NCBI GenBank assembly: GCA_043810345.1
Contig: JBDROF010000006.1
Location: 6,603-70,602 of the forward strand
Source: Bacteroidota bacterium
Lineage (GTDB): Bacteria; Bacteroidota; Bacteroidia; Bacteroidales; FEN-979
Direction of reading: 5' to 3'
Length of the DNA: 64,000 bases
Numbering within the stretch: the stretch's first letter is position 1; each line of letters opens with the position of its first letter. The notes beneath the pieces are model-generated. The model was not told where the DNA came from, ran no database searches, and worked only from the letters and a program-made list of their open reading frames with translations. This document shows positions 7,407 through 63,683 of the stretch, one piece after another. The translations under genes were made by a program, and so were the position numbers.

Positions 7407-7544
7407 CCTGTCCGACTTCTGCGCTTTTTCCAGAGCGATCTGCAGTTCCTTTTCAGCTTTCTTTCGTTCAATGGAGACACTGACCTGCTGGGAAACAAAC
7501 TCCAGTTTTTCCAGATCAGTCTCATCAAAGGCGTGCTTGTCGTT

Positions 7545-44392: not shown

Positions 44393-44917
44393 ATGAATCC
44401 GGATGATTTCTACTACCTGGGGAAGATACTGAAAAGACATGGGAATCATGGTCATTTGATGGCACTCCTCGAAGTGGACGACGCCAGGGATTACCAACAT
44501 CTGAAATCCGTTTATGTCGATGTGTCACATGAACGGATTCCTTTTTTTATTGAATCGGTGGAATTGTTGGAAAAGAAAAAGATACTCCTGAAAATTCAGG
44601 ATGTGTCCACCCCTGATCACGCCGATGCCTTTGCAGGACGTGAGTTGTATCTGCCCCTCTCCTCCCTCCCTGAACTGGAGGGAAACCGATTCTATTACCA
44701 TGAAGTGAAAGGATTCCTCATCATCGACGAGGTGTTTGGTGAATTGGGGATCATCGAAGATATCCTGGAACTGCCCCGGCAGTCCCTGTTTCAGATCAGA
44801 TATCAACATAAAGAGATCCTCATCCCGGTGGTTGATGAAGTGATCCGGGAGGTCAGCCGGGCTAACCAGACCATTTACATCCGTGCACCGGAGGGATTAA
44901 TTGACCTTTATCTTTAG
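44393..44917 (+). CDS. rimM: ribosome maturation factor RimM
   Basis: Directly follows rpsP. YLGKILKRHGNHGHL...FYYHEVKGF... has the RimM/PRC-barrel pattern. The first ATG is chosen over the upstream TTG. Confidence 0.85.
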   Translation: MNPDDFYYLGKILKRHGNHGHLMALLEVDDARDYQHLKSVYVDVSHERIPFFIESVELLEKKKILLKIQDVSTPDHADAFAGRELYLPLSSLPELEGNRFYYHEVKGFLIIDEVFGELGIIEDILELPRQSLFQIRYQHKEILIPVVDEVIREVSRANQTIYIRAPEGLIDLYL

Positions 44918-44936
44918 GAAATAAACAGAATCCATG

Positions 44937-44944
44937 TAACTTTG
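44937..44944 (+). promoter_or_regulatory. Bacteroidota-type -7 promoter box (gdhA)
   Basis: TAACTTTG, 42 nt before the ATG at 44986. Confidence 0.45.
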
Positions 44945-44985
44945 CACACGATTTGTTAATTAATTCACAATATAATCGAAGTAAC

Positions 44986-48395: not shown

Positions 48396-48412
48396 TGTCA
48401 AAAAAACGTACA
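48396..48412. promoter_or_regulatory. second, imperfect activator site
   Basis: TGTC-AAAAAAACG-TACA (TGTC-N9-TACA). Its centre is 21 bp from the perfect site. Confidence 0.45.
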
Positions 48413-48415
48413 CTA

Positions 48416-48434
48416 GTGTCAAAATATTTGACAC
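48416..48434. promoter_or_regulatory. palindromic upstream activator site (putative EBP binding site)
   Basis: GTGTCAAA-ATA-TTTGACAC has perfect 8-bp arms. The reverse-complement copy lies at 60164-60182. Confidence 0.6.
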
Positions 48435-48454
48435 CTTTAGGTGCTTCCTAAAGG
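48434..48454 (+). terminator. hairpin after the BatA-like gene
   Basis: CCTTTAGG-tgctt-CCTAAAGG, an 8-bp stem 39 nt after the stop, followed by A/T-rich sequence. It lies between the activator sites and the -24/-12 element. Confidence 0.35.
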
Positions 48455-48497
48455 GAAATTATTTTATATCTATCTGTTATACAGATATTTATAATTT

Positions 48498-48513
48498 TGG
48501 TACAATATTTGCA
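48498..48513 (+). promoter_or_regulatory. sigma-54 (-24/-12) promoter of the RiPP operon
   Basis: TGGTAC-aatat-TTGCA compared with the consensus TGGCAC-N5-TTGCW. GG-to-GC spacing is exact, and the precursor ATG is 58 nt downstream. Confidence 0.7.
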
Positions 48514-48570: not shown

Positions 48571-48780
48571 ATGAAAACGTTAAGCATCATCAACCTGCAC
48601 AAAGCCGAGATCAAGAAGAATCTGTTAGCAAAAATCAGAGGTGGAGAAGAAATTAAATGTTTTTGCACGGCGACTAATCCTTACGTCGTCATAAAAAAGC
48701 AGGGCGGTAGCACCAAGCTTTGCTATTGTGATGAAGTAACCACCAGCACTGCAGGCGTTTACAGCAGCACACCGGATTAA
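48571..48780 (+). CDS. RiPP precursor peptide, double-glycine leader, Cys-rich core (GG-Bacteroidales-type)
   Basis: 69 aa. The 25-aa leader MKTLSIINLHKAEIKKNLLAKIRGG is followed by a 44-aa core with CFC and CYC motifs. It sits immediately upstream of the rSAM maturase and downstream of a -24/-12 promoter. Confidence 0.8.
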   Translation: MKTLSIINLHKAEIKKNLLAKIRGGEEIKCFCTATNPYVVIKKQGGSTKLCYCDEVTTSTAGVYSSTPD

Positions 48781-48847
48781 TTCCTAAAAGTGTTACCTTT
48801 GCCACTACCCGAAATGGGCAGGTGTGTAACATGATGTCCAAAGACTG

Positions 48848-50362
48848 ATGAAAAATGCGGTTTTCTTTACATCAGGCAAAGGTAACTGTTATCTGTACAG
48901 CCCGTACAGAAACCAGCTCCGGCTTTGTCATCCTCTGATTCATCACTTTTTTTCTCTCGAAAAAAAAGGCACGAACCTCGGCCGGTGGATCACAACCATT
49001 CAGAAAAATAGAAATCTTACCATTCAGGGAATGGGGACATTCTCCCACTCAGAAGTCAATTATCAGCTGGAAAAATACCGGTTCCTGAAACGAAATGGGT
49101 TCCTGAAACAGGCCAGGGATATCAACATTGAAGGAAGGCTGAAGGCCTCCGATGTGAAGAAAAATATAACCTCCGTCAAGCAGCTCATTTTTGAAGTGAC
49201 GGAAGATTGCAACCTAAACTGCACCTACTGCACCTACAGCAAATATTACATCAACAAAGAGAGACACAACAGCTATTTGTCATTCGGAAATGTCCGGCAT
49301 ACGTTAACGGAGCTGATCTCCAAACGCACCACCTCCCCATCAAACCACCTCATCGTCAGTTTCTACGGAGGCGAACCACTGAAAAATTTCGAACTCATCA
49401 AATCGGTGGTGGAATTTACCGGCAGCTATCCGAAAGATCAGATCTCCTTTACCTACTCCCTCTCCAGCAATGGTCTTTTATTGAAAAAATACATCGCTTT
49501 TCTGGTCGAACATGCCTTTGAGCTCTCCGTTAGCCTCGATGGAGATGAAATAGCCAATTCGTTCCGGGTAACGAAGAACAATAAACCATCGTTTGACATG
49601 GTAACCAAAAACCTCGACTACGTCAGGACACACTATCCCGAATATTTCGAAAAAAACATCAGTTTCCTGACCGTGTTGCATAACCGGAACTCGATCAAAT
49701 CCGTGTTCGAATTCTTCCAGGAACGGTATGGAAAGGTGCCGCAAATGTCGGATGTCAATCCAATCAATCTTAACCCATTGCACGAAAGAGAGTTCCGGGA
49801 GAAGTTGCGATCAAAACCGATCACACCGCAGGAAGAGAAAGAGACCATCAAACAGATGGAGAACAGGCATCCGAAGGTCAGGGAGCTGGCCAAGGTCCTG
49901 GAATATTACTCTGGTTTCGTGTTTAAGAACTACCTGGAGATGATCTCTCCAAAACGGGGAAAGGTCTCTTCCAAAAAGTATATACCAACGGCCACCTGTA
50001 CCCCCTTCTCCATCCGGGCCTATTTTTCGGCCGACGGTACCGTTCTTCCCTGTGAGCATATCAGTCCGTTTTATGGGATCGGCTCCTATTCCGACCACCG
50101 TCTATCCCTTGATCCCGCAGGTATGGCCAGCCTCTACAACAACTATTACGATAAGATCTCCCGGTACTGCAGAAAATGTTATTTCATCGATAACTGCCAG
50201 GAATGTCTCTTCAATACCGGGGTGGAGACAGACCATCCATCCTGCTCATTCTACACCACAGAGACCGGATTCAAGGAGTACCTGAAGAAGCATTACTCCA
50301 ACATTGAGAACGATTATAAGTTTTACCGGAAAACCGCTCAAACCACTTTCTATGAAGGATAA
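48848..50362 (+). CDS. radical SAM/SPASM peptide maturase
   Basis: CNLNCTYC (CX3CX2C) within EVTEDCNLNCTYCTYSKYY. The C-terminal auxiliary-cluster motifs are CTPFSIRAYFSADGTVLPC and CRKCYFIDNCQEC. Confidence 0.9.
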   Translation: MKNAVFFTSGKGNCYLYSPYRNQLRLCHPLIHHFFSLEKKGTNLGRWITTIQKNRNLTIQGMGTFSHSEVNYQLEKYRFLKRNGFLKQARDINIEGRLKASDVKKNITSVKQLIFEVTEDCNLNCTYCTYSKYYINKERHNSYLSFGNVRHTLTELISKRTTSPSNHLIVSFYGGEPLKNFELIKSVVEFTGSYPKDQISFTYSLSSNGLLLKKYIAFLVEHAFELSVSLDGDEIANSFRVTKNNKPSFDMVTKNLDYVRTHYPEYFEKNISFLTVLHNRNSIKSVFEFFQERYGKVPQMSDVNPINLNPLHEREFREKLRSKPITPQEEKETIKQMENRHPKVRELAKVLEYYSGFVFKNYLEMISPKRGKVSSKKYIPTATCTPFSIRAYFSADGTVLPCEHISPFYGIGSYSDHRLSLDPAGMASLYNNYYDKISRYCRKCYFIDNCQECLFNTGVETDHPSCSFYTTETGFKEYLKKHYSNIENDYKFYRKTAQTTFYEG

Positions 50363-51632
50363 TCCTCCATGGCTGTTTCTGGAACCTTATGTACATATGC
50401 TTCACCGGGAGGGAGCCCTTCTTCTATACAATACCATCAGTAAAACCGTGTTGGAGTTCAGCAACTCCCGGGAGCTATCCAAACTTGCAGACGAACTGCT
50501 GGACCCTGACAATGGATATGTGGTCCCCCTGTCTGCCAGTCAGCTTCAGGATCCAGAAGTCCAGGATTTCCTCCACCAGGTCAGGCAACACTTCATGGGA
50601 GATCTCCTCGATCCCTCCTGGTCGGAGTGCAAACCGGTCAACATTGTTCCTGAGCCCTTTGTCAAGCATGGTCTCAGGCCTGTTCCCATACAGAAATCCC
50701 CCCTGAAACCCGGCCTGGAGGTCCGCAATTATTTACAGGAACTCACCCTCTTTTTGAATGCCGGAACCGAACCATCATCCGGTCCATCCGCCAGCGCATA
50801 CCTTCAGTTCTCATACCCCTCCTTAGTTTCAGATAAAGAGGAACAGATGGAGCTTCCCCTCTTCCGTGCGATGATCGATGATGTCAATCTTTATACGCCA
50901 ACGCTGATCCACATCTCCGGTATGAACCTGCTTGCCTATCCCCATTTGGAAGAGGTGATCAGAAAACTGGCATCCAGCCCTTTTCAAAAGAAATATCACC
51001 TCCTTATCGATCACTGGGAGGAACGGATCATCCCTTTTATCCTGGCTCAGAAACAGACTACCCTCGCCCTCTACATCACGTTCCCCTCCCATCCGGAACC
51101 CATCGCCGGGTATCTGCAGAGCCTCCCGGCTCGGAAACTCCTGAAGAGACTGGAGTTCAACTTATTGGTCAGCAACCAGGAGGAGCTGCAGATGGCGCAG
51201 GAAACCGTCAGGATGCTCGACCTTACCAACGTCTATTTCAAGCCTGTCTATAACGGGGAAAATCTTGATTTCTTCAGGCAGCATGTGTTTGTTTCCAGGG
51301 AGGAGATTCTGGCTTCACAACCAGATCAACGGGAGGTGTTCTCCAGGATCTCGATCAACGAAAACGATTTCGGAAAACTCTCTGTTTTCCCCGCAGGGGA
51401 AGCCTATGCCAATTTGAATGATCCCATGATCGGAGAGGCGACAAAGAGCTCCCTGGTTCAGCTGGTCACCCAGGAACTGGACAGGGGAATCAGCTGGCGA
51501 CGAACCCGCGCCGGCGTCACTCCTTGCAACGGGTGTCTCTATCAGTTCCTGTGTCCTCCCATCAGCTCCTATGAGATTTTTCTGAAGCGGTTTAATTTCT
51601 GCGATGTCCATCCAAACGGGAAAGAGTCATGA
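50352..51632 (+). CDS. pseudo-radical-SAM partner protein (no CX3CX2C; SPASM-like C-terminus)
   Basis: The ATG overlaps the maturase by 11 nt. Length and layout resemble the maturase, but the Cys triad position reads ELTLFLNAGTEPSS. C-terminal PCNGCLYQFLCPP...FNFC. Confidence 0.75.
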   Translation: MKDNPPWLFLEPYVHMLHREGALLLYNTISKTVLEFSNSRELSKLADELLDPDNGYVVPLSASQLQDPEVQDFLHQVRQHFMGDLLDPSWSECKPVNIVPEPFVKHGLRPVPIQKSPLKPGLEVRNYLQELTLFLNAGTEPSSGPSASAYLQFSYPSLVSDKEEQMELPLFRAMIDDVNLYTPTLIHISGMNLLAYPHLEEVIRKLASSPFQKKYHLLIDHWEERIIPFILAQKQTTLALYITFPSHPEPIAGYLQSLPARKLLKRLEFNLLVSNQEELQMAQETVRMLDLTNVYFKPVYNGENLDFFRQHVFVSREEILASQPDQREVFSRISINENDFGKLSVFPAGEAYANLNDPMIGEATKSSLVQLVTQELDRGISWRRTRAGVTPCNGCLYQFLCPPISSYEIFLKRFNFCDVHPNGKES

Positions 51633-54016
51633 ACTGGAACTCATTGGTAACCTCTTACCGATTCATGATGAAGAGTAGAATCTTCACCGCCATCAACCTG
51701 ATCGGGCTGACGGCCGGGTTGACGGTCTCCTTTTTCCTGCTGATCTACATCATCAATGAATTAAGTTACAACTCCTTTCATGCCAGAAGCGACCGGATCT
51801 ACCGCATCATCACGCAAACCGAAAAGAATACCATCCCCTTGTCCCCTTCCCTTCTTCCGGCCAGGCTTCAGGAGCAATCCGAGGGTATTTTACAGGCAGG
51901 TGGCATGGTTGAAGTCCAATTCTTAACGGGTCCGGTAAGGGTTAAAAAAGGGCAAAATTACCACGAGGAACCTGGATTTTTCTGTGCCGATCCGGCGGTT
52001 CTGGATATCCTCAGCTTCAACATTGCCGGCGGTGAAGGAGGTGCAGGATTACACAAGGCAGGATCCGTCATGCTTTCACGACCTGTTGCCCTGAAATATT
52101 TTGACCAGGCGGATCCAATCGGGCAGAAGTTGGAGATTAAATCCGGTGGAGTCCCCGTTTCCTTAACCGTTTCCGGTATTTTTGAAAAGCTGCCCTGGAA
52201 CTCCACCATGGAAGTTGACTTTATTGCCGGGATGGATCTTTTCCATTTCCTGCTGAATGAGTTTGGCATTGACCTGGAAACAGAGACGGTGAATTATGCG
52301 GATTTTTATGCAGAAAACTATATTCTGGTTGACCGTCGTGGGAGAATACCTGAACTGATGGATCAGCTCCCATCGCTTCTGGATACCCTGGGACTCACCG
52401 CGCGGAAGATTGCTTTTTCTTTTCAGAACATCCAGGACATTCATCTCGATTCGGAGGAGATTACAAACGATTTCCACCAGAAGGGAACCCGGTCGGCTCT
52501 CTTCTATTATGGCTCACTGGCCTTTGCCATCTTACTGCTTGCCGGCATCAACTACTCTATCCTCAGTACCGCCCGTTCGGCCTTGCGATTTAAGGAGATC
52601 GGGGTCAGGAAGGTCCTGGGAGCTACCAAACGGGAATTACGGATTCAGGTACTCGCCGAATCGATGTTGCTGACCTTTTTGGCCCTGCCCCTCGCTTTTC
52701 TGGTGCTGGGGTTCATTGAGCCCTTTGCCGACCGGTTATATGGGTATGAGATCCAGCTATACACCTGGAACATGCTGATTTACATTCCCCTCTTCGCTGT
52801 CATCACCCTGCTTATCGGATTGACCTCCGGAGGCTATCTTGCCTTTTACCTTTCGGCCCTGAATCCATTGAAAGCTATTAAAAACCAGGTATTTACACGT
52901 CAGCGCTTCAGCCTGAGCAAAGGGTTCATTGTGCTTCAACTGCTGATCACCCTGTTCCTGCTGGGGTGTGTGCTGATCATCTTTGCCCAGCTCGATTATT
53001 GCCTGAATACAAACAGTGGCATACAGAAGAGAGAGCTGTTGATCGTTTCATTCGATCCGGCAGAGTTTCATTTCTACCCCGAGCTTCGTGACCGGATTCA
53101 GGAAGAAGAGGCCGTCGTGTCTGTCTCGGGCAGTTCCATCATTCCTCCCACCAACGCCAGTTCGTTCATCTCGTTTACCATCTCATCCCCCGGTTCATTG
53201 TCAGAAACAGTCCTACTGGAGAATTATTATGTGGACAGAGACTTTTTCACCACCCTTGGTATCGGGATGGTATCAGGTGAAGATATCAGACCGGCAGGGG
53301 GTACCCAATCCGAAGTACCCGTTATTCTCAACCAGGAGGCCAAAGCGCTGCTGGGTCTCGAGCAACCGGTGGGGACCTCTCTTGGTAAAAGCATCGTCAC
53401 GGGAGTGGTCAGGGATTTCAACATCCACTCTTTTCATTCGAAAATTTTACCGGCAGTATTCACCTACAATCCCTCCGAGTGCAGTTACCTGGTGGTCAGA
53501 TGCCAGCCGGGAGCTTTAAAAAAGGCACGTCAACTAGTAGAGAAACACTGGCTTGCGCTGGCACCTGATCTTCCGTTTGCCAGTGCCACATTCGATGATG
53601 AACTGAATCTGATGTACTCCACGGAGCAGAAATTTGGTCAGGTGGTAGCCTCCTTCTCCTTTCTGGCCTTCATCATCACGGGGATGGGTCTTTTTGGTCT
53701 TGCCCTCCTGATGATCGAGCGCCGGTTGAAAGAGATTGCCGTCAGGAAGATCTTCGGCGCCTCGAACCACGACATCCTGTTCCGGGTGCAAAAAGAGTTT
53801 CTGCTGTATATCCTGCTGGCATCAGTGGTTGCCATCCCGGTAACCTGGTATATCATGAACAGCTGGTTATCTTCTTTCTACTATAAAGTTCCGGTACACT
53901 GGTACCTCTTTTTGATTGCCGTCCTGTCCATCACTATTTTTGTATCCTCGATCATCATGATCAGGACCTGGGCTGTTCTGCGTAAGAACCTGATCAACGT
54001 GTTGAGATATGAGTAG
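51629..54016 (+). CDS. ABC transporter permease, FtsX/MacB type (duplicated)
   Basis: 795 aa with a 4-nt overlap upstream. The N-terminal TM helix and periplasmic domain are repeated twice, with FtsX-like TM bundles (...RKVLGATKRELR..., ...RKIFGASNHDIL...). Confidence 0.85.
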   Translation: MNWNSLVTSYRFMMKSRIFTAINLIGLTAGLTVSFFLLIYIINELSYNSFHARSDRIYRIITQTEKNTIPLSPSLLPARLQEQSEGILQAGGMVEVQFLTGPVRVKKGQNYHEEPGFFCADPAVLDILSFNIAGGEGGAGLHKAGSVMLSRPVALKYFDQADPIGQKLEIKSGGVPVSLTVSGIFEKLPWNSTMEVDFIAGMDLFHFLLNEFGIDLETETVNYADFYAENYILVDRRGRIPELMDQLPSLLDTLGLTARKIAFSFQNIQDIHLDSEEITNDFHQKGTRSALFYYGSLAFAILLLAGINYSILSTARSALRFKEIGVRKVLGATKRELRIQVLAESMLLTFLALPLAFLVLGFIEPFADRLYGYEIQLYTWNMLIYIPLFAVITLLIGLTSGGYLAFYLSALNPLKAIKNQVFTRQRFSLSKGFIVLQLLITLFLLGCVLIIFAQLDYCLNTNSGIQKRELLIVSFDPAEFHFYPELRDRIQEEEAVVSVSGSSIIPPTNASSFISFTISSPGSLSETVLLENYYVDRDFFTTLGIGMVSGEDIRPAGGTQSEVPVILNQEAKALLGLEQPVGTSLGKSIVTGVVRDFNIHSFHSKILPAVFTYNPSECSYLVVRCQPGALKKARQLVEKHWLALAPDLPFASATFDDELNLMYSTEQKFGQVVASFSFLAFIITGMGLFGLALLMIERRLKEIAVRKIFGASNHDILFRVQKEFLLYILLASVVAIPVTWYIMNSWLSSFYYKVPVHWYLFLIAVLSITIFVSSIIMIRTWAVLRKNLINVLRYE

Positions 54017-56213
54017 GTTCCCATTTTCACGGCAACTCGATTCCATGGATTGCGGTCCTGCCTGCCTCCAGATGGTCGCCCGTTTTCATGGGAAGAACTA
54101 CTCCCTCTCCACCCTCCGCGACCTCTGTCATATCACCCGCGATGGGGTCACCATGCTGGGGATCAGTGATGCTGCTGAAGCCACCGGATACCATACCCTC
54201 GGTGTAAAGATCAGTTTCGGCGAGCTCCTCGCGGAAGCTCCCCTCCCCTGCATCCTTCACTGGCAACAGAATCACTTCGTGGTGTTGTACCGGGTGAAAG
54301 AAAAGCATGGGAAGAAAAAGCTCTTCATCGCAGATCCGGCCATCGGGAGAGTGAAATACAGTGAGGAGGAGTTTTTGAAAAGATGGCTCTCGGAGGTGAA
54401 ACCGGAGGAAGAACAGAAAGGGATATGCCTGCTTCTGGAACCCACGGAAGCGTTTCATTCAAAGAGGGATGAAGAGACCGGGATGTCGCGCCTCCGGTTC
54501 ATCTTCAGCTACCTGAAACCCCACCGGAAACTCTTCTCACAGCTGGTGCTGGGCATGCTGCTCGGAAGCCTCTTCATGCTGATCTTCCCCTTCCTCACAC
54601 AGTCGATCATCGATGTGGGGATCCAGAACCAGGACCTGAGCTTCATCTTCCTGGTACTGCTGGCCATGATGGCTCTCTTTCTCGGCCAGATCTCAGTGGA
54701 GTTCATCCGGGGGTGGATCCTCCTGCACATCAGTACCCGGATCAACATCTCATTGATCTCCGACTTCCTGATCAAGATCATGAGGCTGCCCATCGGTTTC
54801 TTTGACACCAAACGAACCGGCGACCTGATCCAGCGCATTCTCGACCACGACCGGATACAGTCCTTTCTCACTGTCAGTTCACTCAGCATTCTCTTTTCCA
54901 TCGTGAACTTCATCATCTTCGGACTGGTTCTCCTGGCTTACAACTCCACAATCTTTCTGGTTTTTATAGCGGGCAGCATGCTCTATGGCCTCTGGGTTTA
55001 CCTGTTCATGAACCGCAGGAAAGAGCTCGATTACGCCCGTTTCTCCTACATGGCTGAAAATCAGGGGAACCTCTTTCAACTGGTAACCGCCATGCAGGAG
55101 ATCAAACTGAACAATTGTGAAAGGGAGAAACGATGGGATTGGGAACGGATCCAGGCCAAACTCTTCCGGGTGAGTTTAAGGAGCCTCTCCCTGACACAGT
55201 ACCAGAATGTGGGAGCCCTGTTTTTCATTCGTACCAAAGACATTGTGATCATTTTCTTATCTGCCTCACTGGTATTGAAAGGGGAACTTACCCTGGGGAT
55301 GATGCTGGCTATCCAGTACATCCTCGGACAGGTCAACAACCCGGTGGAACAGATGGTCAACTTCATCCGGGAAGCACAGGATGCCACCATCAGCATGTCC
55401 CGTCTGGATGAGGTAAGCTCCCTGAAAGAGGAAGAGGGGCCGGACGACCATCTTGTGAAGAGCATCCCGCCGGATCATGGTATCCGCATCTGCCAGCTCT
55501 CTTTTCAGTACGAGGGACCTCATTCCCCCTTCGTTTTGAAAGATCTGAATCTGGTCATCCCCGATCAGAAAATCACCGCCATTGTCGGGCCAAGCGGTAG
55601 CGGGAAGACCACGCTGATCAAGCTGATGCTGGGCTTCTATCCACCTGTAAGGGGAACGATCTCTGTGGGAGACCTGCCTCTGCAACACATCTCTCCGCAG
55701 TACTGGCGTACCCTTTGCGGTGCGGTCATGCAGGAGGGATTTATCTTTTCCGACTCCATTGCCAGCAACATTGCCATGAGCCTGGAACAGGTGGAGCCGG
55801 AAAAGTTTTCCCGGGCGATCAGGATCGCCAACCTGACTGAATTCGTAGATTCGCTGCCTACCGGCCTCCGGACCAAGATCGGATCCGAGGGACACGGGAT
55901 CAGCGAAGGGCAAAAACAACGGGTCCTGATCGCCCGGGCGGTCTATAAAGATCCTGAATTCATCTTCTTCGACGAAGCTACTAACTCCCTGGATGCCAAT
56001 AATGAGATGATGATCATCGAAAATCTGAAGGAATTTTTTGCCGGGAAAACGGTGGTGGTGGTAGCGCACCGGCTAAGCACAGTGAAAAATGCCGACCAGA
56101 TTGTAGTGCTCGATCAGGGCTGTATCCTGGAGCAGGGCACTCACCACGAGCTCACCAGTCTCCGTGGGGCTTATTATGAATTGGTTAAAAATCAACTTGA
56201 ACTTGGATATTAA
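54009..56213 (+). CDS. peptidase C39 domain-containing ABC exporter (double-glycine leader cleavage/export)
   Basis: QLDSMDCGPACLQMV (catalytic Cys), HWQQNHFVVLY (His), 6-TM ABC domain, Walker A GPSGSGKTT, signature SEGQKQR, and Walker B IFFDEAT. Confidence 0.9.
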   Translation: MSRFPFSRQLDSMDCGPACLQMVARFHGKNYSLSTLRDLCHITRDGVTMLGISDAAEATGYHTLGVKISFGELLAEAPLPCILHWQQNHFVVLYRVKEKHGKKKLFIADPAIGRVKYSEEEFLKRWLSEVKPEEEQKGICLLLEPTEAFHSKRDEETGMSRLRFIFSYLKPHRKLFSQLVLGMLLGSLFMLIFPFLTQSIIDVGIQNQDLSFIFLVLLAMMALFLGQISVEFIRGWILLHISTRINISLISDFLIKIMRLPIGFFDTKRTGDLIQRILDHDRIQSFLTVSSLSILFSIVNFIIFGLVLLAYNSTIFLVFIAGSMLYGLWVYLFMNRRKELDYARFSYMAENQGNLFQLVTAMQEIKLNNCEREKRWDWERIQAKLFRVSLRSLSLTQYQNVGALFFIRTKDIVIIFLSASLVLKGELTLGMMLAIQYILGQVNNPVEQMVNFIREAQDATISMSRLDEVSSLKEEEGPDDHLVKSIPPDHGIRICQLSFQYEGPHSPFVLKDLNLVIPDQKITAIVGPSGSGKTTLIKLMLGFYPPVRGTISVGDLPLQHISPQYWRTLCGAVMQEGFIFSDSIASNIAMSLEQVEPEKFSRAIRIANLTEFVDSLPTGLRTKIGSEGHGISEGQKQRVLIARAVYKDPEFIFFDEATNSLDANNEMMIIENLKEFFAGKTVVVVAHRLSTVKNADQIVVLDQGCILEQGTHHELTSLRGAYYELVKNQLELGY

Positions 56214-56214
56214 C

Positions 56215-56718
56215 ATGACCCAACAACCAACCGATCAGGAAAAATACAGCCGGGAAGTGGAAGAGATATTGCACAAACGACCTGCCTTGCTGGTTCGCAA
56301 GGGAATCCTCCTGCTCACCATCCTTGTCATCCTCCTCCTGGTGGGTTCCCATTTCATTAAGTACCCCGAGAAACTGACTGCCTCGGTCACGTTCGACACC
56401 GTTGCCGTCCACGATTCGATCCTCCTTCAGGGCCGGATCATCCTGACCTCGGCAGCGGCCTCCATCGTGAAGCCGGGACAACCGGTTGTGATGCTCCTGC
56501 GTACGACTCCAGAAAGCACGCCCGTTGACGTAACCGGAACCATAGAAGCCCTGCTTCCTATGGGCCGGGGCGACTATTACACTGTGCTGGTTCAGCCCGA
56601 TACCCAGACTGAGCTTTTAGGGCATGAAGGTACGGCCAGCATTTTGATAGGTGAAACAAATCTGCTGACCCAAATATTAAATCCGGTTTTTGCAGTATTC
56701 CGATCTGCTGACCAATAG
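56215..56718 (+). CDS. truncated HlyD-family adaptor-like protein (167 aa)
   Basis: The N-terminus SREVEEILHKRPALLVRKGILLLTILVILLLVGSHFIKYPEKLTASV matches the HlyD-type anchor. The C-terminal beta-domain-like part is present, but there is no room for the coiled-coil hairpin. Confidence 0.55.
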   Translation: MTQQPTDQEKYSREVEEILHKRPALLVRKGILLLTILVILLLVGSHFIKYPEKLTASVTFDTVAVHDSILLQGRIILTSAAASIVKPGQPVVMLLRTTPESTPVDVTGTIEALLPMGRGDYYTVLVQPDTQTELLGHEGTASILIGETNLLTQILNPVFAVFRSADQ

Positions 56719-56730
56719 AGGAAGAACGTT

Positions 56731-57402
56731 ATGATAATAATCAAAGAATTGACGAAAGTGTTCCAGGCGGAGGATGTCCAGACGATGGCCCTGAACCAGG
56801 TGGATTTTGAGGTCGCGGAAGGCGAGTTCGTAGCGATCATGGGCCCGTCAGGATGTGGAAAATCTACCCTGCTCAACATCATAGGGATGTTGGACGAGCC
56901 CAACAGCGGCCAATATGAATTCCTGAACCATAACATCTTCGAGCTGCCAGAAAAAGAGCGAACCGCCATACGGAAAAAGAACATCGGTTTTGTTTTTCAG
57001 AATTTCAACCTGATCGACGAATTGACCATATTCGAGAATGTTGAGCTGCCACTGATCTACCTGGGAGTACCTGCACCCGAACGCAAAGTGAAGGTGATTG
57101 AAATGCTGGAAGAACTGGAGATGGCTCACCGGAAAAAATATTTCCCCATGCAACTTTCGGGAGGGCAGCAGCAACGGATTGCTGTGGCCCGGGCGCTGGT
57201 TGTGAACCCCGCTCTCCTGCTCGCAGATGAACCCACGGGTAACCTCGACTCCCTCCATGGAGATGAGGTGATGAACCTCTTCATCAAGCTCAATGATGCC
57301 GGTACCACCATTGTGATGGTAACCCACTCGGCTCGGGATGCCGAATACAGCACACGCATCGTTAACCTGTTCGACGGGCAGATCGTATCGGAGAGGTATT
57401 AA
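56731..57402 (+). CDS. ABC transporter ATP-binding protein (MacB/LolD type)
   Basis: Walker A GPSGCGKST, LSGGQQQR, Walker B LLADEPTGNLD. Confidence 0.9.
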   Translation: MIIIKELTKVFQAEDVQTMALNQVDFEVAEGEFVAIMGPSGCGKSTLLNIIGMLDEPNSGQYEFLNHNIFELPEKERTAIRKKNIGFVFQNFNLIDELTIFENVELPLIYLGVPAPERKVKVIEMLEELEMAHRKKYFPMQLSGGQQQRIAVARALVVNPALLLADEPTGNLDSLHGDEVMNLFIKLNDAGTTIVMVTHSARDAEYSTRIVNLFDGQIVSERY

Positions 57403-58748
57403 ATCCTGATCGTAAACACCGTATTTCCTGGCGACGACTGCACCGTCATGCTGCCGCCGTGGAGCCTGATGATCTGGCGGGAGAGGCTGAGGCCTATGCC
57501 TGAACCCGACTGTTTGGTGGTGAAGAAAGGAACAAAGATATCATCTATCAACTCCGGGGGAATCCCGTTCCCGTTATCGGAGACCTGGATTATCAGTTGA
57601 TCCTGTGCCGAGTGTGCAGCCAGTTCTACCACCGGGGATTCTGCCTCGTCAAGGGCCTCTGATGCATTTTTAACGAGATTGATCAGTACCTGCTCCAGCA
57701 ACGAGCCATCGGCATTGATAAAAATGGAAGGATGGCAGTTGATCCGGAGGTCAATTCCACCGACTGCAAGTTGAGATTCGAAGAGGTGTAATACCCGTTG
57801 CAGAAGGTCCTTGACATTGACAATCTTGAAGTCGGGTTTAGGTAAACGGGTAATGCTGCGGTAGTTCTGCACGAAACTGATCAACCCTTTCCCACGGGAA
57901 TCAATCAGGTCCAGCCCTTTTACTGTCCGGGCCATTATATCATGGGTGACCTCAGCAGGCTCTATCAACTCCGGTTTGTCTCTGCGCCGGAGTTTCTTCA
58001 CGATGCTTCCTACCAGGGTGACGATCGGAGTCATTGAATTCATGATCTCATGGGTCAATACCCGGATCAGACGTTGCCACGATTCGATCTCCTTCTCTTC
58101 CAATTCAGGCTTGATATTCTGAAAAGAGACCAGGTGCAACTCTTCATTCATCGTCCGGAACTTGACCTTTTTGGTAGCCAGCTGGATCAGCTCACCTTCC
58201 AGGATCAGGGAGATCAGTTTCCGGTCGTTCGATGCCAGGTTGATCAGCATCTCGCTGAATCCATCCTTGATGTTGTTCAACTTCCTGAGGTTTCGCAATA
58301 CCTGCATCCCAAATATCTTTTTGGCTGCCTCGTTGAAGAGTTCCACCGAACCATCTGCCTTGAACGAAATCAATCCGACAGCCGTTTCGTCGACGATGGT
58401 TTTGAAGTAGTTGTTCTGTATCTCATTTTTCAGTCTCGCCTGCTCCAGTTTGTCGTTGATCAGGTCGAAATACATATAGAGCGGACTGAATTCATCCTTT
58501 TTGTTCCGGCGCACATTGGATGAGGTAACCTCACCACTGAGGTAAAAGAGAAAAAAGTTCTCGAGCTTCTTGTTGATGGAGTTCAGGTACCGGGTAAGCA
58601 TGACCACCTGGTAAATGAAGAGGGCTCCGAGGGCTATGATGACGGAATAGTTAGGATGGATAAAGAAAGAAAGGCACAGCAGGAAACAGGACAGTGAGAT
58701 AAGTACCAAACGGATGATCAGATGATAGAAATACCTTTTAGAGACCAT
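57399..58748 (-). CDS. membrane sensor histidine kinase (NtrB/ZraS-like), partner of the sigma-54 regulator
   Basis: Two N-terminal TM helices, a PAS-like region, H-box LTHEIMNSMTPI, then NLVKNASEA, DNGNGIP and GSGIGLSLSRQI. Confidence 0.85.
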   Translation of the reverse strand: MVSKRYFYHLIIRLVLISLSCFLLCLSFFIHPNYSVIIALGALFIYQVVMLTRYLNSINKKLENFFLFYLSGEVTSSNVRRNKKDEFSPLYMYFDLINDKLEQARLKNEIQNNYFKTIVDETAVGLISFKADGSVELFNEAAKKIFGMQVLRNLRKLNNIKDGFSEMLINLASNDRKLISLILEGELIQLATKKVKFRTMNEELHLVSFQNIKPELEEKEIESWQRLIRVLTHEIMNSMTPIVTLVGSIVKKLRRRDKPELIEPAEVTHDIMARTVKGLDLIDSRGKGLISFVQNYRSITRLPKPDFKIVNVKDLLQRVLHLFESQLAVGGIDLRINCHPSIFINADGSLLEQVLINLVKNASEALDEAESPVVELAAHSAQDQLIIQVSDNGNGIPPELIDDIFVPFFTTKQSGSGIGLSLSRQIIRLHGGSMTVQSSPGNTVFTIRI

Positions 58749-60120
58749 ACCGTTTCATTTTGTTATAAATGGTCTGCCTCGAGATACCCAGTTCCCGGGC
58801 AGCACTGGTCATGTTACCCATGTGCCGGAGGAGTGCTTTCCGTATGATCTCCTTTTCAAAATCACCGTAGGATCCGTTCATTTCGGCTGGTTGCATCGGT
58901 TGCCCGGGCATTTTCTTCAGGTAAAGGTCCTCCGGCCTCACTGTATTCCCTTCAGCCAGGATGACCGCCTTCTCAATGGAGTGCTCCAGCTCACGAATAT
59001 TTCCGGGCCAAACATAGGTTCTCATGGCCATCAGGGCATCCTTGGAAAATGCCAGTTTACCCCGGTCGTATTTGGCAGTGCACCGGTGCAGAAAATGGTT
59101 AGCCATCAGCTCGATATCACTTCCCCTTTCACGCAATGGGGGAAGATCGATCTGAATGGTATTGATCCGGAAGAGAAGATCCTGCCGGAACAATCCTTCC
59201 ATTACCAGTTTGTCGAGGTTTTTATTTGTGGCACAGATCAGGCGGATGTCGATGGGAATAATTTTATTGGATCCCAGCGGAATGATTTGCCGTTCCTGCA
59301 GAACGTTCATGACCTTCGCCTGCATATTCAAAGAAAAATTTCCAATCTCATCCAGGAAGAGGGTTCCTCCGGAGGCGGTTTCAAAGCGACCGATCCGGTC
59401 CTGCTTGGCATCAGTAAATGCCCCTTTCTTGTGGCCGAACATCTCACTTTCAAAGAGTGTCAGAGGAATGGAGGCCATATCAACGGTGATCATCGCTTCA
59501 TTTGAGCGGGATGAGCGTTTATGGATCTCCCTGGCAATCAACCCCTTGCCGGTCCCATTCTCTCCTGTGATCAGGATATTGACATCGGTTTTACTTACCT
59601 TCTCCACGATCTCCATCACCCGGCTCATCTGGGGGCACTGAACGATGATCTCGGAATACTGCTGATCCAGTTCGGCGGTCAGCTGATCCTGCCGGTTGCG
59701 GAGTTTCTCGATCTCCTTGGTCGACTCCCGGAGCTTTAAGGCTGTACGCAATGTTGCCAGGAGTTTATCATTATCCCATGGCTTGATGATGAAATCAACG
59801 GCACCATTCTTCATGGCCTTCACAGCAAGCTCTACATCTCCGTAAGCTGTCATCATGATGACACTCAAAGAAGGATCCACCTTCAGGATCTCTTTCAACC
59901 AGTAAAGACCTTCGTTTCCCGTCACCACCCCCGCCGAGAAATTCATATCCAGCAAAACCAGGTCAAAGGATTCATTCTTCAGGGTGCTGACGATCATGTT
60001 TGGTGTCTTCAATCCGGTAACCAGGGAAAACTCATCTTCCAGAAACAACTCCAGCGCTTCCAGGATCTCTTTGTTATCTTCAACGATGAGCAGGTTTCCA
60101 TTTTTCGACATATGGTACAA
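58738..60120 (-). CDS. sigma-54-dependent response regulator (NtrC-family enhancer-binding protein)
   Basis: REC (LLIVEDNKEIL...LVLLDMNF), AAA+ domain with GENGTGKG and the sigma-54 contact loop GAFTDA, and a C-terminal Fis-type HTH AARELGISRQTIYNKMKRYG. The start may instead be the ATG at 60111. Confidence 0.9.
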   Translation of the reverse strand: MYHMSKNGNLLIVEDNKEILEALELFLEDEFSLVTGLKTPNMIVSTLKNESFDLVLLDMNFSAGVVTGNEGLYWLKEILKVDPSLSVIMMTAYGDVELAVKAMKNGAVDFIIKPWDNDKLLATLRTALKLRESTKEIEKLRNRQDQLTAELDQQYSEIIVQCPQMSRVMEIVEKVSKTDVNILITGENGTGKGLIAREIHKRSSRSNEAMITVDMASIPLTLFESEMFGHKKGAFTDAKQDRIGRFETASGGTLFLDEIGNFSLNMQAKVMNVLQERQIIPLGSNKIIPIDIRLICATNKNLDKLVMEGLFRQDLLFRINTIQIDLPPLRERGSDIELMANHFLHRCTAKYDRGKLAFSKDALMAMRTYVWPGNIRELEHSIEKAVILAEGNTVRPEDLYLKKMPGQPMQPAEMNGSYGDFEKEIIRKALLRHMGNMTSAARELGISRQTIYNKMKRYGL

Positions 60121-60142
60121 TTTTACACTTTTTTACTACGAG

Positions 60143-60159
60143 TGTCCAAATTTAATACA
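60143..60159. promoter_or_regulatory. second, imperfect activator site (copy 2)
   Basis: TGTC-CAAATTTAA-TACA. Its centre is 22 bp from the perfect site. Confidence 0.45.
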
Positions 60160-60163
60160 ATTA

Positions 60164-60182
60164 TTGTCAAATATTTTGACAC
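60164..60182. promoter_or_regulatory. palindromic upstream activator site (copy 2)
   Basis: TTGTCAAA-TAT-TTTGACAC, in the divergent intergenic region between the EBP gene and the hybrid kinase gene. Confidence 0.6.
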
Positions 60183-60243
60183 TTTTAAAACTTTTTTTTT
60201 ACCCTTCGTAAATAACATATTGATTATCAATAAAATAATTTTA

Positions 60244-60259
60244 TGGCCTGATTTTTGCT
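60244..60259 (+). promoter_or_regulatory. sigma-54 (-24/-12)-like promoter upstream of the hybrid kinase gene
   Basis: TGGCCT-gattt-TTGCT with exact GG-to-GC spacing, about 100 nt upstream of the ATG at 60362. Confidence 0.5.
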
Positions 60260-60361
60260 ATCTTCCTGTGCTACATGGTTAATTTTGCTCCGTTACACCC
60301 TGACTGGCTAGTTGTGTAATTTTTTAGTTAAAACCAGCACTAAAGTGAACTCTTAAGATGT

Positions 60362-62416
60362 ATGAAAAGACGGGATGAGGCAACGCGGAATGTATTAGAG
60401 GTGATCCCTGATATCCTCCTGTGGTTTGATGACCATGGGCAGTTACTCGATTTTCACCCGAACAACCACGCTTTCTTATTCGACAGGGAAGGAGGAGTTG
60501 TTGGCTGTTCACTGGAAGAGATCTTCAACCGGGAGGTCAGCACACAGATGCTGGAACTGGCCGGGATCTGCAGGGAGCAGAACAAACTACAATCGGGACA
60601 GGTTATTTACAGAATCAATGGATCGGTTTCCATGTTCGAGTGCAGGATCGCTCCGGCGGATGCCAATTCCTTTATTACAGGATGGAGAAAGATCACGCAT
60701 CTGAGTGAATCACGAAAAGTCGATCTGATCAACGGCAACAGCCAGGTTACGCTGGTGCTGCTGACCGAGAGTTCACTTGATGAAGCGATCAATCGCTCCT
60801 TAAAGATCCTTGGGGAGACCTATGAGGCCGACCGTATCATCTTATTCCAGAATCATCTCGATCCTGAATCAGGGGAGGCATCCATGACCCTCCAGCAAGA
60901 GTGGTCCCATCCCGATATGGTTCACAGTCTGGGGAACCTGAACTTATCCCATATCTCTTATCATCCTGACCATACCCAGTTATATGAGACGCTGGAAAAC
61001 GACACCCCGGTGATTGCGATCACGGAGGATCTGAACCAGGAGGCCCAGGGGTTTTTAAACCGGATGGACATCCTGTCGGTGGTCATCATGCCGGTCTGCG
61101 TGAGAAAAACCTTCTGGGGTTTCCTGGGCATCGGTGATTGCCGTTTGCCACGTGCCTGGAAAGAAGAGGAGGTTGGCGCTTTCAGGGCAATTTCCATGGT
61201 GCTTGGGGCAGTGATACAAAAACACCAGGATCAGGATGAGCTGACGATTGCCAGGTTACGAGCTGAGGAGTCGGACCGCCTGAAAAGTTCCATCCTGGCC
61301 AACATCAACCATGAGTTACGTACTCCCATGACTGGCATCCTCGGATTTTCAGAGATCCTTTGTGAACAACTGGGAAATGCAGAGGCTCGCCAGATGGCTG
61401 AAAACATCCAGGTTAGTGGCCGCAGACTGTTATCCACCCTGAACAGTATGATTGAGTTATCCCAGTTTGAAGCCAAAAAGGCGCTCTTCAAACTGAGGGA
61501 GACCAAACTCAACGAGTTGATCCTGCTTACATGTGAGCCGCATCTCGCGGGAGCCAAGCAAAAGAAACTTGGTTTTGAGATCTATATGAATGAATCGATA
61601 TTCTCCTATATCGACGAAAAACTTTTCACACAGCTCCTGAACCATATCCTGGAGAACGCAGTGAAGTTCACCCATTCAGGCAGGATTATCGTGGAAACCT
61701 GTAACGAATGGGAGGAAGGGAGACCGTGGTCCTGCATTCGTATTACTGATACAGGCCCTGGTATTCCCGCCGAGTTCCATGAGCTGATTTTTGAAGAGTT
61801 CCGGCAGGTCAGTGAAGGATACAATCGCAGTTTTGAAGGAAGCGGACTCGGACTTACACTTGCTAAAAAGATCGTCGAACTGATGAATGGCAAACTTACC
61901 CTTACCAGCCATAAAGAAAAAGGCAGCACCTTCTCCATCTGGCTCCCCTCCAGTCAGTTGAGTACATCCGAATTCCAATTCTTTGTTAAGGAACCGGTGT
62001 CCTTTCCTGAAACAGTCGAGTGCCCCGTTCCGGAGACGAAAAAGGACCTTCCCACCGTCCTCATCGTGGAAGACAACCGGTTAAACAGTGATCTGATCCT
62101 CATATACCTCAGTGCCCAATACAATTGCGATGTGGCCCGCGATGGCGAATCGGCAGTGGAGATGGCCCTGAACACAAAGTATGACACCATCCTGATGGAT
62201 ATCCACCTGGGATCAGGAATCGATGGCATGGAGGCTACCCGCCGGATCCGATCTCTCAGCGGCTACCAACTCACTCCCATCATCGCTGTCACCGGTTATA
62301 CCATGGAGTCAGACAAAGAAGAGATCATGGATTCAGGGTGTTCCCACTACCTTCCCAAACCAATCGATAAAACAGAGCTGTCCAACCTCATCGCCAGCCT
62401 GGTGGGCAAGAAGTAG
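60362..62416 (+). CDS. PAS-GAF hybrid sensor histidine kinase with C-terminal receiver
   Basis: H-box NHELRTPMTGILGF, plus NAVKFT, DTGPGIP, GSGLGLTLAKK and REC VLIVEDNRLN...ILMDIHLGSGIDG...KP. Confidence 0.9.
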   Translation: MKRRDEATRNVLEVIPDILLWFDDHGQLLDFHPNNHAFLFDREGGVVGCSLEEIFNREVSTQMLELAGICREQNKLQSGQVIYRINGSVSMFECRIAPADANSFITGWRKITHLSESRKVDLINGNSQVTLVLLTESSLDEAINRSLKILGETYEADRIILFQNHLDPESGEASMTLQQEWSHPDMVHSLGNLNLSHISYHPDHTQLYETLENDTPVIAITEDLNQEAQGFLNRMDILSVVIMPVCVRKTFWGFLGIGDCRLPRAWKEEEVGAFRAISMVLGAVIQKHQDQDELTIARLRAEESDRLKSSILANINHELRTPMTGILGFSEILCEQLGNAEARQMAENIQVSGRRLLSTLNSMIELSQFEAKKALFKLRETKLNELILLTCEPHLAGAKQKKLGFEIYMNESIFSYIDEKLFTQLLNHILENAVKFTHSGRIIVETCNEWEEGRPWSCIRITDTGPGIPAEFHELIFEEFRQVSEGYNRSFEGSGLGLTLAKKIVELMNGKLTLTSHKEKGSTFSIWLPSSQLSTSEFQFFVKEPVSFPETVECPVPETKKDLPTVLIVEDNRLNSDLILIYLSAQYNCDVARDGESAVEMALNTKYDTILMDIHLGSGIDGMEATRRIRSLSGYQLTPIIAVTGYTMESDKEEIMDSGCSHYLPKPIDKTELSNLIASLVGKK

Positions 62417-62471
62417 CGCCTGTTTTTAATCCCCGGATAATTTTCTATTTTTACATGGTCAAAACCGCACC

Positions 62472-63683
62472 ATGAAAAAATTCCCGTTACACTGGCAGAT
62501 CCTGGTTGCGCTTATCCTGGGGATCCTTTATGGCGCTTTCCTGGGTGAATATACCGGCTACGTGGAATGGATGGGGGATATCTTCCTGCGGGCGCTCAAG
62601 ATGATCATTATTCCGCTCATCCTGAGTTCTATTATCTCCGGGGTCACCAATATCGGAACCGCAGAGAACCTGGGGCGGTTGGGGCTCAAGACCATCGTTT
62701 ATTACCTCTCTACCAGCATCTTGGCCATTGTTACCGGCTTGTTGTTTGTAAACCTGTTGCAACCTGGTGTAGGGGCCGACCTGGGGTTCAGCAAAGAGAT
62801 AAAAGAGCTGGGCATCATGCAGCAGTCGTTCGGACAGATCCTCATCAACATCATTCCGACTAATATCTTTGAATCCTTCACCCAGGCAAGCATGCTCTCC
62901 ATCATCTTTTTTGCCATCCTGTTTGGATTCTTCATCAATTTAACAAGCGTGAAGTCGAGGACGTTCCTGACGACCTTCTTTGATGCGACCTTTGAAGTGA
63001 TGATGAAGATCACCATGTTCATCATCCGTTTTGCACCCTTCGGCGTGTTCGGGATCGTAGCTTACCAGGTCAGCCAATCGGAGAGCATTTCGGTGCTAGC
63101 CCAAAGCATGGGTCTTTACATGCTGACGGTTTTACTGGGGCTTGCGGTTCACACATTGATCACCCTGCCATTGATCACCCGGTTTGTCGGGCATGTGAAC
63201 CCGTTAAAACATTTCAAGGCAGTGACCACTCCACTGCTCACCGCCTTCTCCACCTCCTCCTCCTCAGCCACCCTCCCACTTACCATCCAGGCAGTGGAAA
63301 ACAACAGCGGAGTCTCCAACAAGATCTCCTCCTTCACTCTCCCCCTGGGAGCCACCATCAACATGGATGGGACAGCACTCTACGAATGTGTAGCCGCGAT
63401 GTTCATTGCGCAAGCCTACGGAATTGAACTTGACTTTGTTCAACAGCTTATCGTGGTGGTTACAGCCCTCCTGGCTTCCATTGGCGCAGCAGGGATCCCG
63501 ATGGCCGGACTGGTGATGATCTCGATCATACTGACAGCCGTGGGACTGCCGCTGGAAGGATTGGGGCTGATCCTGGCAGTGGACCGGATCCTGGATATGT
63601 TCCGCACTGCCACCAATGTGTGGAGTGATACCTGTGGTGCCGTAGTCATTGCAAAATCAGAAGGGGAAACCCTGGTGGTATGA
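62472..63683 (+). CDS. dicarboxylate/amino acid:cation symporter (DAACS/GltP family)
   Basis: FSTSSSSATLPL, GATINMDGTALYE and DRILDMFRTATNVWSD. Confidence 0.9.
   Translation: MKKFPLHWQILVALILGILYGAFLGEYTGYVEWMGDIFLRALKMIIIPLILSSIISGVTNIGTAENLGRLGLKTIVYYLSTSILAIVTGLLFVNLLQPGVGADLGFSKEIKELGIMQQSFGQILINIIPTNIFESFTQASMLSIIFFAILFGFFINLTSVKSRTFLTTFFDATFEVMMKITMFIIRFAPFGVFGIVAYQVSQSESISVLAQSMGLYMLTVLLGLAVHTLITLPLITRFVGHVNPLKHFKAVTTPLLTAFSTSSSSATLPLTIQAVENNSGVSNKISSFTLPLGATINMDGTALYECVAAMFIAQAYGIELDFVQQLIVVVTALLASIGAAGIPMAGLVMISIILTAVGLPLEGLGLILAVDRILDMFRTATNVWSDTCGAVVIAKSEGETLVV

Follow-up and report, generated by a model that had tools for sequence, protein, structure and literature searches.

The intergenic region at positions 60112-60361 of the 64-kb stretch of Bacteroidota DNA analysed here (the window, meaning the whole stretch) separates the gene of an NtrC-type activator (an enhancer-binding protein, EBP; minus strand) from the gene of a hybrid histidine kinase (plus strand). 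It was found that positions 60142-60259 hold two putative activator sites (R1 and R2), a palindromic box and a -24/-12 motif, in an arrangement which is likely to represent a functional sigma-54-class enhancer/promoter module, controlled by the EBP and driving the hybrid kinase gene. An equivalent module, referred to below as the left module, precedes a peptide operon and, judged from the sequence of the two modules, one activator very probably switches on both the peptide operon and the hybrid kinase as a single regulon. The module is a familiar type of regulatory arrangement and involves no new mechanism. The coordinates of the features are collected in Table 1, in which HK stands for histidine kinase, rSAM for radical SAM and ORF for open reading frame.

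Table 1. Features of the window which belong to, or are discussed with, the module between the activator and hybrid kinase genes.
Feature	Position	Strand	Sequence or content
R1, promoter-distal putative activator site	60142-60159	.	GTGTCCAAATTTAATACA; 60143-60159 reads TGTCCAAATTTAATACA
R2, promoter-proximal putative activator site	60164-60182 (core 60165-60181)	.	TTGTCAAATATTTTGACAC
T9 tract	60192-60200	.	between activator sites and promoter
Palindromic (-45) box	60220-60230	.	TTGATTATCAA; centre 20 bp upstream of first G of GG (about -45)
Sigma-54-type -24/-12 promoter	60244-60259	+	TGGCCTGATTTTTGCT, i.e. TGGCCT-GATTT-TTGCT; faces hybrid kinase gene
Conserved block beside EBP gene	60121-60128	.	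TTTTACAC; 10-17 bp upstream of EBP start codon; identity 1.00 in six genomes
Activator (EBP)	58738-60111	-	NtrC-type response regulator; first gene of EBP-HK operon
Cognate sensor kinase	57399-58748	-	HATPase_c (Pfam); gene overlaps EBP gene by 11 bp
Hybrid histidine kinase, predicted target gene	60362-62416	+	soluble; PAS-like N-terminus, GAF, HisKA, HATPase_c, receiver
Sodium:dicarboxylate symporter (SDF) family gene	62472-63683	+	Pfam SDF, 2.9e-130
Left module, before peptide precursor	48396-48513	+	site, palindrome, box, promoter
Left distal site	48396-48412		TGTCAAAAAAACGTACA
Left palindrome	48417-48433		TGTCAAAATATTTGACA
Left palindromic box	48474-48484		CTGTTATACAG
Left promoter	48498-48513	+	TGGTACAATATTTGCA
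Peptide operon	48571-57402	+	precursor, TIGR04148 rSAM maturase, TIGR04150 pseudo-rSAM, MacB/FtsX permease, C39-ABC exporter, 180-aa ORF, ABC ATPase

Elements of the module

The two activator sites and the -24/-12 motif had been picked out in an earlier, sequence-only reading of the window; a check of the sequence agreed with it on their positions, on the GG/GC spacing and on the relation of R2 to the left palindrome. R1 is a dyad of the TGT-N11-ACA type, in which the left half is good and the right half degenerate. The core of R2 is a perfect 7-N3-7 palindrome (TGTCAAATATTTTGACA, centre 60173), and R2 as a whole is the reverse complement of the left palindrome GTGTCAAAATATTTGACAC (48416-48434), the outermost base excepted. 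R1 is centred at 60151, placing the two centres 22 bp apart, and the dyads lie 94 bp (R1) and 72 bp (R2) upstream of the GG doublet, which is an enhancer distance.

The GG and GC doublets of the promoter motif occupy 60245-60246 and 60257-60258, so that the G of GC follows the first G of GG by the canonical 12 bp; the doublets stand 10 bp apart, as is required of sigma-54 promoters of the form TGGCAC-N5-TTGCW. Standard -12 numbering would place the transcription start near 60270. The T-run between the sites and the promoter is kept in orthologues (identity 0.70 versus 0.43-0.50 in the adjoining spacer) and possibly contributes intrinsic curvature. The palindromic box at about -45 may be bound by an architectural protein of the IHF/HU type or by another factor that acts close to the promoter; when it was compared by eye with the IHF consensus WATCAR-N4-TTR, the minus strand of the window matched and the orthologues did so inconsistently. 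A search of 59900-60600 against Rfam returned no known RNA family, riboswitch or small RNA.

Conservation of the module

Close relatives were found by searching with the cognate kinase against a set in which each species had one genome, and were uncultured Bacteroidales/Prolixibacteraceae metagenome-assembled genomes (MAGs). Full synteny, hybrid kinase included, was observed in L001-L004, L006 and L007. When homologues of the hybrid kinase were searched for, a discrete orthologue group was obtained at 57-100% identity, after which identity fell to 39% or less; L151, L152 and L156-L158 were further distinct orthologue genomes, while L154 and L155 (one protein query) are apparently of the same species as L007, the intergenic region of L154 being identical to that of L007. 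In every orthologue context examined the hybrid kinase gene was divergent from the same EBP-HK pair, and the nearest paralogue (36% identity) had an unrelated neighbourhood. Geometry was counted over 12 distinct genomes, and the identities given for individual elements are mean pairwise values over six non-redundant genomes.

The distance between the centres of R1 and R2 was 22 bp in all 12 genomes, and that from the centre of R2 to GG was 72 bp in 10 of them (71 and 74 bp in the remaining two). TGG and TTG were present in 12 of 12, R1 was identical in 11 with one substitution in L152, the -45 box kept its register throughout, and R1 lay 29-35 bp from the EBP start codon in every case. The distance from the promoter to the ATG of the kinase, by comparison, ranged from 17 to 105 nt (17-18 nt in three genomes), and there is therefore no conserved leader element. 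Since the distance from sites to promoter is fixed and that to the ATG floats, the promoter is held relative to the sites and not to the start of the gene, as predicted for an enhancer-dependent promoter. Sequence identity followed the same elements, with values of 1.00 for R1, 0.92 for R2, 0.84 for the -45 box, 0.89 for the block ATAATTTTA, 0.92 for TGGC and 0.82 for TTTTGC, against 0.33-0.50 for the spacers and 0.28 for the leader downstream of the promoter.

The sequence-only reading was to be given up if its paired motifs were conserved in no related genome carrying the cluster; the module stands upstream of the hybrid kinase orthologue in 12 genomes. Its proposal that the EBP co-activates the peptide operon and the hybrid kinase gains comparative support from this near-invariant geometry.

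The left module and the peptide operon

The centres of the left sites (48404 and 48425) are 21 bp apart, compared with 22 bp in the right module. The first G of GG follows the palindrome centre by 74 bp in the left module and by 72 bp in the right one. The distal site of each module is good in its outer half and degenerate in its inner half and, because this asymmetry is shared, the orientation can be said to be copied between them. Both modules also contain a palindromic box, absent from the sequence-only reading, with the first G of GG exactly 20 bp downstream of its centre. In L001-L004, L007 and L008 the left module is retained, and its promoter has the canonical form TGGCAC-N5-TTGCA.

The pattern TGTCAAA-N3-TTTGACA with at most one mismatch occurred twice in the 64 kb (at 48417 and 60165), compared with 0.00 in 100 dinucleotide shuffles, while the same pattern at three mismatches was at background (5 found versus 3.9 expected). 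Taken alone, the -24/-12 pattern TGGY-N7-TTGCW is not unusual, as the window has 5 matches versus 2.1 expected; two of these five lie on the same strand as, and 72-74 bp downstream of, the only two palindromes of the window. From the observed density, the chance of a -24/-12 match within 3 bp either side of that offset would be approximately 3e-4 per palindrome.

A recent duplication of the module was considered and rejected: in a direct alignment of the left and right modules (MAFFT) there was no similarity outside the motifs and the promoters were not kept in register, so the likeness is purely architectural.

The peptide operon was annotated with Pfam and NCBIfam. Its maturase scored 370.7 bits against TIGR04148 (cut-off 300) and the adjacent protein 312.3 bits against TIGR04150 (cut-off 250). 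The precursor (48571-48780) runs ...KIRGG and then into a Cys-rich core, and itself matched no model. The operon consequently has the composition of a GG-leader radical SAM system, namely TIGR04148 beside TIGR04150 together with a GG-leader precursor. The 180-aa ORF (56176-56718), between the C39-ABC exporter and the ABC ATPase genes, likewise matched nothing in Pfam or NCBIfam; all close relatives of the cluster retain it, at 49-68% identity. The genes which directly precede the left module (44393-48395) are housekeeping ones (RimM, glutamate dehydrogenase, BatA-like). The BatA-like ORF ends at 48395, abutting the first activator site, and the regulated island thus begins abruptly at that point.

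The activator and its cognate kinase

The activator has a receiver (Response_reg, 1.6e-20), a complete sigma-54 AAA+ domain (Sigma54_activat PF00158, 1.5e-63; AAA_lid_14, 8.7e-22) and a C-terminal HTH_8 domain (1.7e-15; all Pfam), which is the domain order of an NtrC-type regulator; its true start is the ATG at 60111, not the TTG at 60120. The loop which contacts sigma-54 (59390-59410, residues ~230-236) reads GAFTDA in place of GAFTGA. GAFTDA was found in all but one of 21 relatives, the remaining one (L007) having GTFTDA, and the same G5-to-D variant occurs in FlgR, a functional activator of Campylobacter (PMC3162934). The loop was accordingly scored as intact.

Two membrane helices with a loop of ~5 residues were predicted, by eye, at the N-terminus of the cognate kinase (58600-58748). 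This topology suggests a kinase of the intramembrane-sensing type. The family to which the cognate kinase belongs is habitually paired with MacB/FtsX transporters.

The wider activator family

In L011 and L012, the EBPs of which are 68-71% identical to that of the window, tandem sites are followed by TGGCCTGATTTTTGCT / TGGTCTGATTTTTGCA at 72-73 bp. The promoter TGGCCTGATTTTTGCT in the L011/L012 setting is identical to that of the window. The gene behind the module in these two loci (2438-3217 in L011 and 2170-2958 in L012) replaces the hybrid kinase; its product, of 260 aa, carries a membrane anchor at the N-terminus and had no match in Pfam. In L010 (3376-4037) the slot beside the EBP gene codes for a stand-alone receiver of 155 aa, which shares 55% identity with the receiver domain of the hybrid kinase.

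Relatives with EBPs of 42-53% identity came from Cytophagales, Roseivirga, Rikenellaceae and other MAGs. In L043, L052 and L057, two TGT-N11-ACA dyads 22-23 bp apart start ~40-90 bp from the EBP start, and a TGG-N8-TTG motif pointing away from the EBP lies ~74 bp beyond the proximal dyad (in L057 by eye). In L066, L077 and L078 a single dyad was detected, and its distance to the promoter motif is unchanged; L048 and L080 carry two dyads and a TGGCAC-type motif which the automatic scan had missed, and L013, L015 and L016 have a divergent promoter motif with no dyad passing the filter. Boxes similar to the -45 box were also seen in distant members with different activator sites.

The divergent gene encodes a duplicated MacB_PCD+FtsX permease of ~790 aa in the six loci scanned with Pfam (L013, L015, L048, L052, L066 and L077), and the divergent ORFs of L016, L057, L078 and L080 resemble it by eye. 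The permease is of the same family as the product of 51629-54016 in the peptide operon of the window. A published in-silico survey also found sigma-54 promoters to be enriched upstream of FtsX-like permeases (COG0577) in Bacteroidia (PMC12316311). In L043 the gene behind the divergent module (6237-8540) encodes a TPR + S15 X-Pro dipeptidyl-peptidase and not a permease.

A divergent site/promoter module beside the activator gene therefore looks like the default architecture of this EBP family. In the clade of the window the usual slot is taken by the hybrid kinase, and the permease sits behind a second module, in the peptide operon. The sequence-only reading had described the site order, spacing and orientation of the right module as copying the precursor promoter. 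These do match; outside the motifs there is no similarity and, because an EBP-adjacent divergent module is typical of the family, the right module is not simply a copy.

The half-sites were observed to covary with the recognition helix of the HTH domain when the C-termini of the EBPs of the window, L001-L012, L043, L048, L052, L057, L066, L077, L078 and L080 were compared. Helix RQTxYNK goes with TGTCAAA/TTTGACA, SRTTLYAK with TGTTCAG/TGAACA, and GRTTLYRK with TGTTTCA/GGAACA. This covariation is the best available support for the neighbouring EBP as the reader of the sites, and the pairs amount to a small specificity code for the family.

A metagenome scan with the pattern palindrome-N56-68-TGG-N9-TTG gave 70 matches, nearly all of them due to chance, with no close orthologue and a few unrelated EBP loci among them. 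Tandem TGTCTAATTTTTWGACAC upstream of TGGCAC-type motifs was noted on three metagenome contigs (L083, 668-762; L146, 174-272; L110, 13314-13411), one of them from human gut; these contigs probably represent the same regulator family as well.

Probable autoregulation and alternative explanations

The EBP start codon lies ~30 bp from the beginning of R1, so that any promoter of the EBP-HK operon must share DNA with the sites. Two candidates were found, both of which overlap conserved site DNA. The minus strand of R1 holds TAAATTTG, a match to the Bacteroidetes -7 box TAnnTTTG, and a scan of the minus strand for sigma-70-type promoters gave TGGACA-17-TAAAAT (10/12 match), in which TGGACA is the invariant left half of R1 and TAAAAT lies in the invariant TTTTACAC block; the 17-bp spacing was constant in seven aligned genomes. 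Read on the minus strand as GTGTAAAA, the TTTTACAC block is also similar to an activator half-site, and it may act as promoter or operator of the EBP-HK operon. With either candidate, bound activator would sit on its own promoter. Autoregulation, put forward as possible in the sequence-only reading, is plausible given the 29-35 bp that separate R1 from the EBP start codon in 12 genomes, and the module probably doubles as an autoregulatory operator; by analogy with XylR at Ps/Pr, the feedback would most likely be negative.

Inspection by eye of the minus strand of 60112-60361 gave no sigma-54 promoter facing the EBP gene; TGGTTAATTTTGC at 60276-60288 was rejected for its wrong spacing and lack of conservation. 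It was also noted that TGGTACAAT at 60113-60121, which overlaps the region of the EBP start codon, is identical in sequence to 48498-48506, which form the -24 half of the left promoter. The 60113-60121 copy has no correctly spaced -12 element and is present only in the window and L001, and is thus probably a coincidence.

Several observations weigh against a sigma-54 promoter which serves the hybrid kinase. Only four of the 12 orthologous promoters have the C of the -12 GC, six having GT and two GA; the left promoter is, by comparison, canonical in close relatives. L010 has three tandem sites, 21 bp apart, beside its EBP gene and no recognisable -24/-12 motif; the persistence of sites in the absence of a divergent sigma-54 promoter points to a second role for them, in autoregulation. 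Finally, an RpoN-box search of six-frame translations of the window and of the fetched loci found no rpoN, and the presence of sigma-54 is assumed from that of the EBP (PF00158). As regards the -12 element, its G and the preceding Ts are invariant across the orthologous promoters, and a base other than C also occurs in the peptide-operon promoter of L010 (TTTGT) and in many promoters of distant family members (TTGT, TTGA, TTGG). Combined with a fixed TGG/TTG, this may represent a lineage-specific relaxation of the -12 element, and the promoter may be weaker or differently tuned as a result. We do not regard the missing C as a strong argument against function.

An operator role provides the strongest competing explanation, which we nevertheless consider unlikely: the sites would be chiefly or only an autoregulatory operator, the -24/-12 motif a decaying relic of an ancestral permease promoter, and the kinase would be transcribed from a housekeeping-sigma promoter. 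The constant proximity of R1 to the EBP start codon, the -7 box within R1, the TGGACA-17-TAAAAT pair spanning two invariant blocks, the three sites of L010, the loss of the -12 C in eight of 12 genomes and the permease gene which holds the slot in distant relatives would all fit such a history. What the relic does not fit is the retention of TGG/TTG in 12 of 12 genomes, at 72 bp in 10 of them, while spacer and leader have diverged to 28-50% identity, nor the -45 box kept in register alongside. Non-C bases at -12 are, moreover, common family-wide, even at a peptide-operon promoter, and in three genomes the promoter lies 17-18 nt from the kinase ATG.

That the palindromes are bound by a regulator other than the adjacent EBP, and reflect some other common control, is highly improbable. 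TGT-N11-ACA dyads are indeed used by several families of dimeric regulators, but here the sites are always found beside the EBP gene, in relatives of 42-96% identity, their half-sites change in step with the recognition helix of the EBP, and both modules keep them at enhancer distance from a -24/-12 motif. Chance similarity is effectively refuted, for although the intergenic DNA is AT-rich and the -24/-12 pattern alone is ~2.3x over expectation, the shuffles gave 0 palindromes at up to one mismatch against the 2 observed, and conservation and geometry hold in 12 genomes.

Proposed mechanism and comparison with known systems

The elements, their rarity, their conservation and geometry in 12 genomes, their recurrence across the family and the covariation of helix and half-site are observed. 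For an EBP-controlled module driving the hybrid kinase, we infer the following course of events from sequence, and this applies equally to binding by the EBP, to dependence on sigma-54, to the position of the start site, to looping, to the direction of any autoregulation and to the role of the hybrid kinase. The activator, once phosphorylated by its cognate kinase, would bind R1 and R2 as dimers, two helical turns apart and on the same face of the DNA, and the bound dimers would assemble into an active AAA+ oligomer. The ~70 bp of intervening DNA would then loop, probably aided by the T-tract and by a factor at the -45 box, allowing the oligomer to remodel sigma-54 holoenzyme at TGGCCT-N5-TTGCT. 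Transcription would proceed from near 60270 through the PAS-GAF hybrid kinase gene and might extend to the symporter gene. At the left module the same activator would drive the radical SAM peptide operon, and occupancy of the sites beside its own gene would feed back on its expression.

A similar layout is known from XylR, where activation of the divergent sigma-54 promoter Ps, which drives xylS, lowers xylR transcription from Pr (PMC3469447). In both systems, the present one as predicted, a sigma-54 activator drives a structural operon (from Pu in that case, the peptide operon here), and sites beside its own gene drive a divergent second regulatory gene (xylS and the hybrid kinase, respectively); from the position of the sites, reduced transcription of the activator would be expected here too on activation. 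Unlike the present activator, which would respond through a phosphorylated receiver, XylR is activated by ligand via a V4R-type domain. Its second regulator is an AraC-type transcription factor and not a hybrid histidine kinase, and the rules for housekeeping promoters differ in Bacteroidota from those of the XylR setting.

Tandem sites and divergent targets are also a feature of NtrC-family regulons such as those of DctD (dctA/dctBD in rhizobia), ZraR (zraP/zraSR) and NtrC (glnAp2 in E. coli). Shared with these are the receiver + AAA+ + HTH_8 activator, a target divergent from the regulator operon, two same-face dyads ~70-110 bp upstream of -24/-12, and a bend or IHF-like element between enhancer and promoter, for which the box is the candidate here. 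The site TGTCAAA-N3-TTTGACA, the targets, the GAFTDA loop and the relaxed -12 of most orthologues set the present system apart.

In the Bce modules of Firmicutes (BceRS-BceAB) the kinase lacks a sensor domain and is coupled to an ABC transporter of the MacB/FtsX type. The cognate kinase, with its two membrane helices and ~5-residue loop, is of similar build, the usual divergent target of the EBP family is a MacB_PCD+FtsX permease, and the permease and ATPase of the window sit in the regulated peptide operon. The regulator here is, however, a sigma-54 activator where Bce modules have an OmpR-type one, and the module is predicted to drive a hybrid kinase and not the transporter. A tentative and rather doubtful extension of the scheme is that the induced hybrid kinase forms a built-in second layer of the circuit, in which PAS/GAF input or a phosphate-draining receiver gates or pulses peptide production; together with the loop-less kinase and the MacB/FtsX transporter this would make a sigma-54, transporter-coupled, self-limiting peptide-sensing circuit. 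The stand-alone receiver in the same slot of L010 fits the receiver as the part that matters. We know of no such circuit described in Bacteroidota, and a literature search for sigma-54 control of ribosomally synthesised and post-translationally modified peptides, or for regulation of TIGR04148/TIGR04150 systems, found nothing relevant.

With this analysis the prediction of one promoter grows into that of a small regulon, which has a defined binding motif (GTGTCAAA-N3-TTTGACAC), a fixed geometry and a conserved -45 box. The analysis also provides a composite regulon motif, GTGTCNAA-N3-TTNGACAC-N61-63-TGG-N8-TTG. The setting is almost unstudied, both as regards sigma-54 control in uncultured Bacteroidales/Prolixibacteraceae and the regulation of TIGR04148/TIGR04150 clusters. 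For heterologous expression of the cluster, the results suggest that the EBP-HK pair, sigma-54 and possibly the hybrid kinase would be needed. They also furnish an annotation rule for the EBP family, in which the activator gene stands back to back with a sigma-54 promoter, usually one serving a MacB/FtsX permease.

The hybrid kinase and the downstream symporter

The hybrid kinase was assigned to its class from Pfam matches to GAF (1e-07), HisKA (2.8e-15), HATPase_c (7.5e-26) and Response_reg (1.6e-21). With a PAS-like N-terminus, a GAF domain and no membrane segment predicted, it probably senses a cytoplasmic signal. A phosphorelay among the two kinases and the EBP, which had also been suggested from the sequence, found no support: the hybrid kinase and EBP receivers share 23% identity, a generic level of similarity, and Pfam detected no HPt domain in the hybrid kinase.

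The symporter gene follows the hybrid kinase in every locus which was long enough to include it. No terminator-like site was found in the 55-bp gap between the two genes, and they may be co-transcribed. A conserved block, ATAATTTTCTAYTTTTACATGGTNAAA (62436-62465), was also observed in this gap, just upstream of the symporter ATG, and may represent an independent promoter for that gene.

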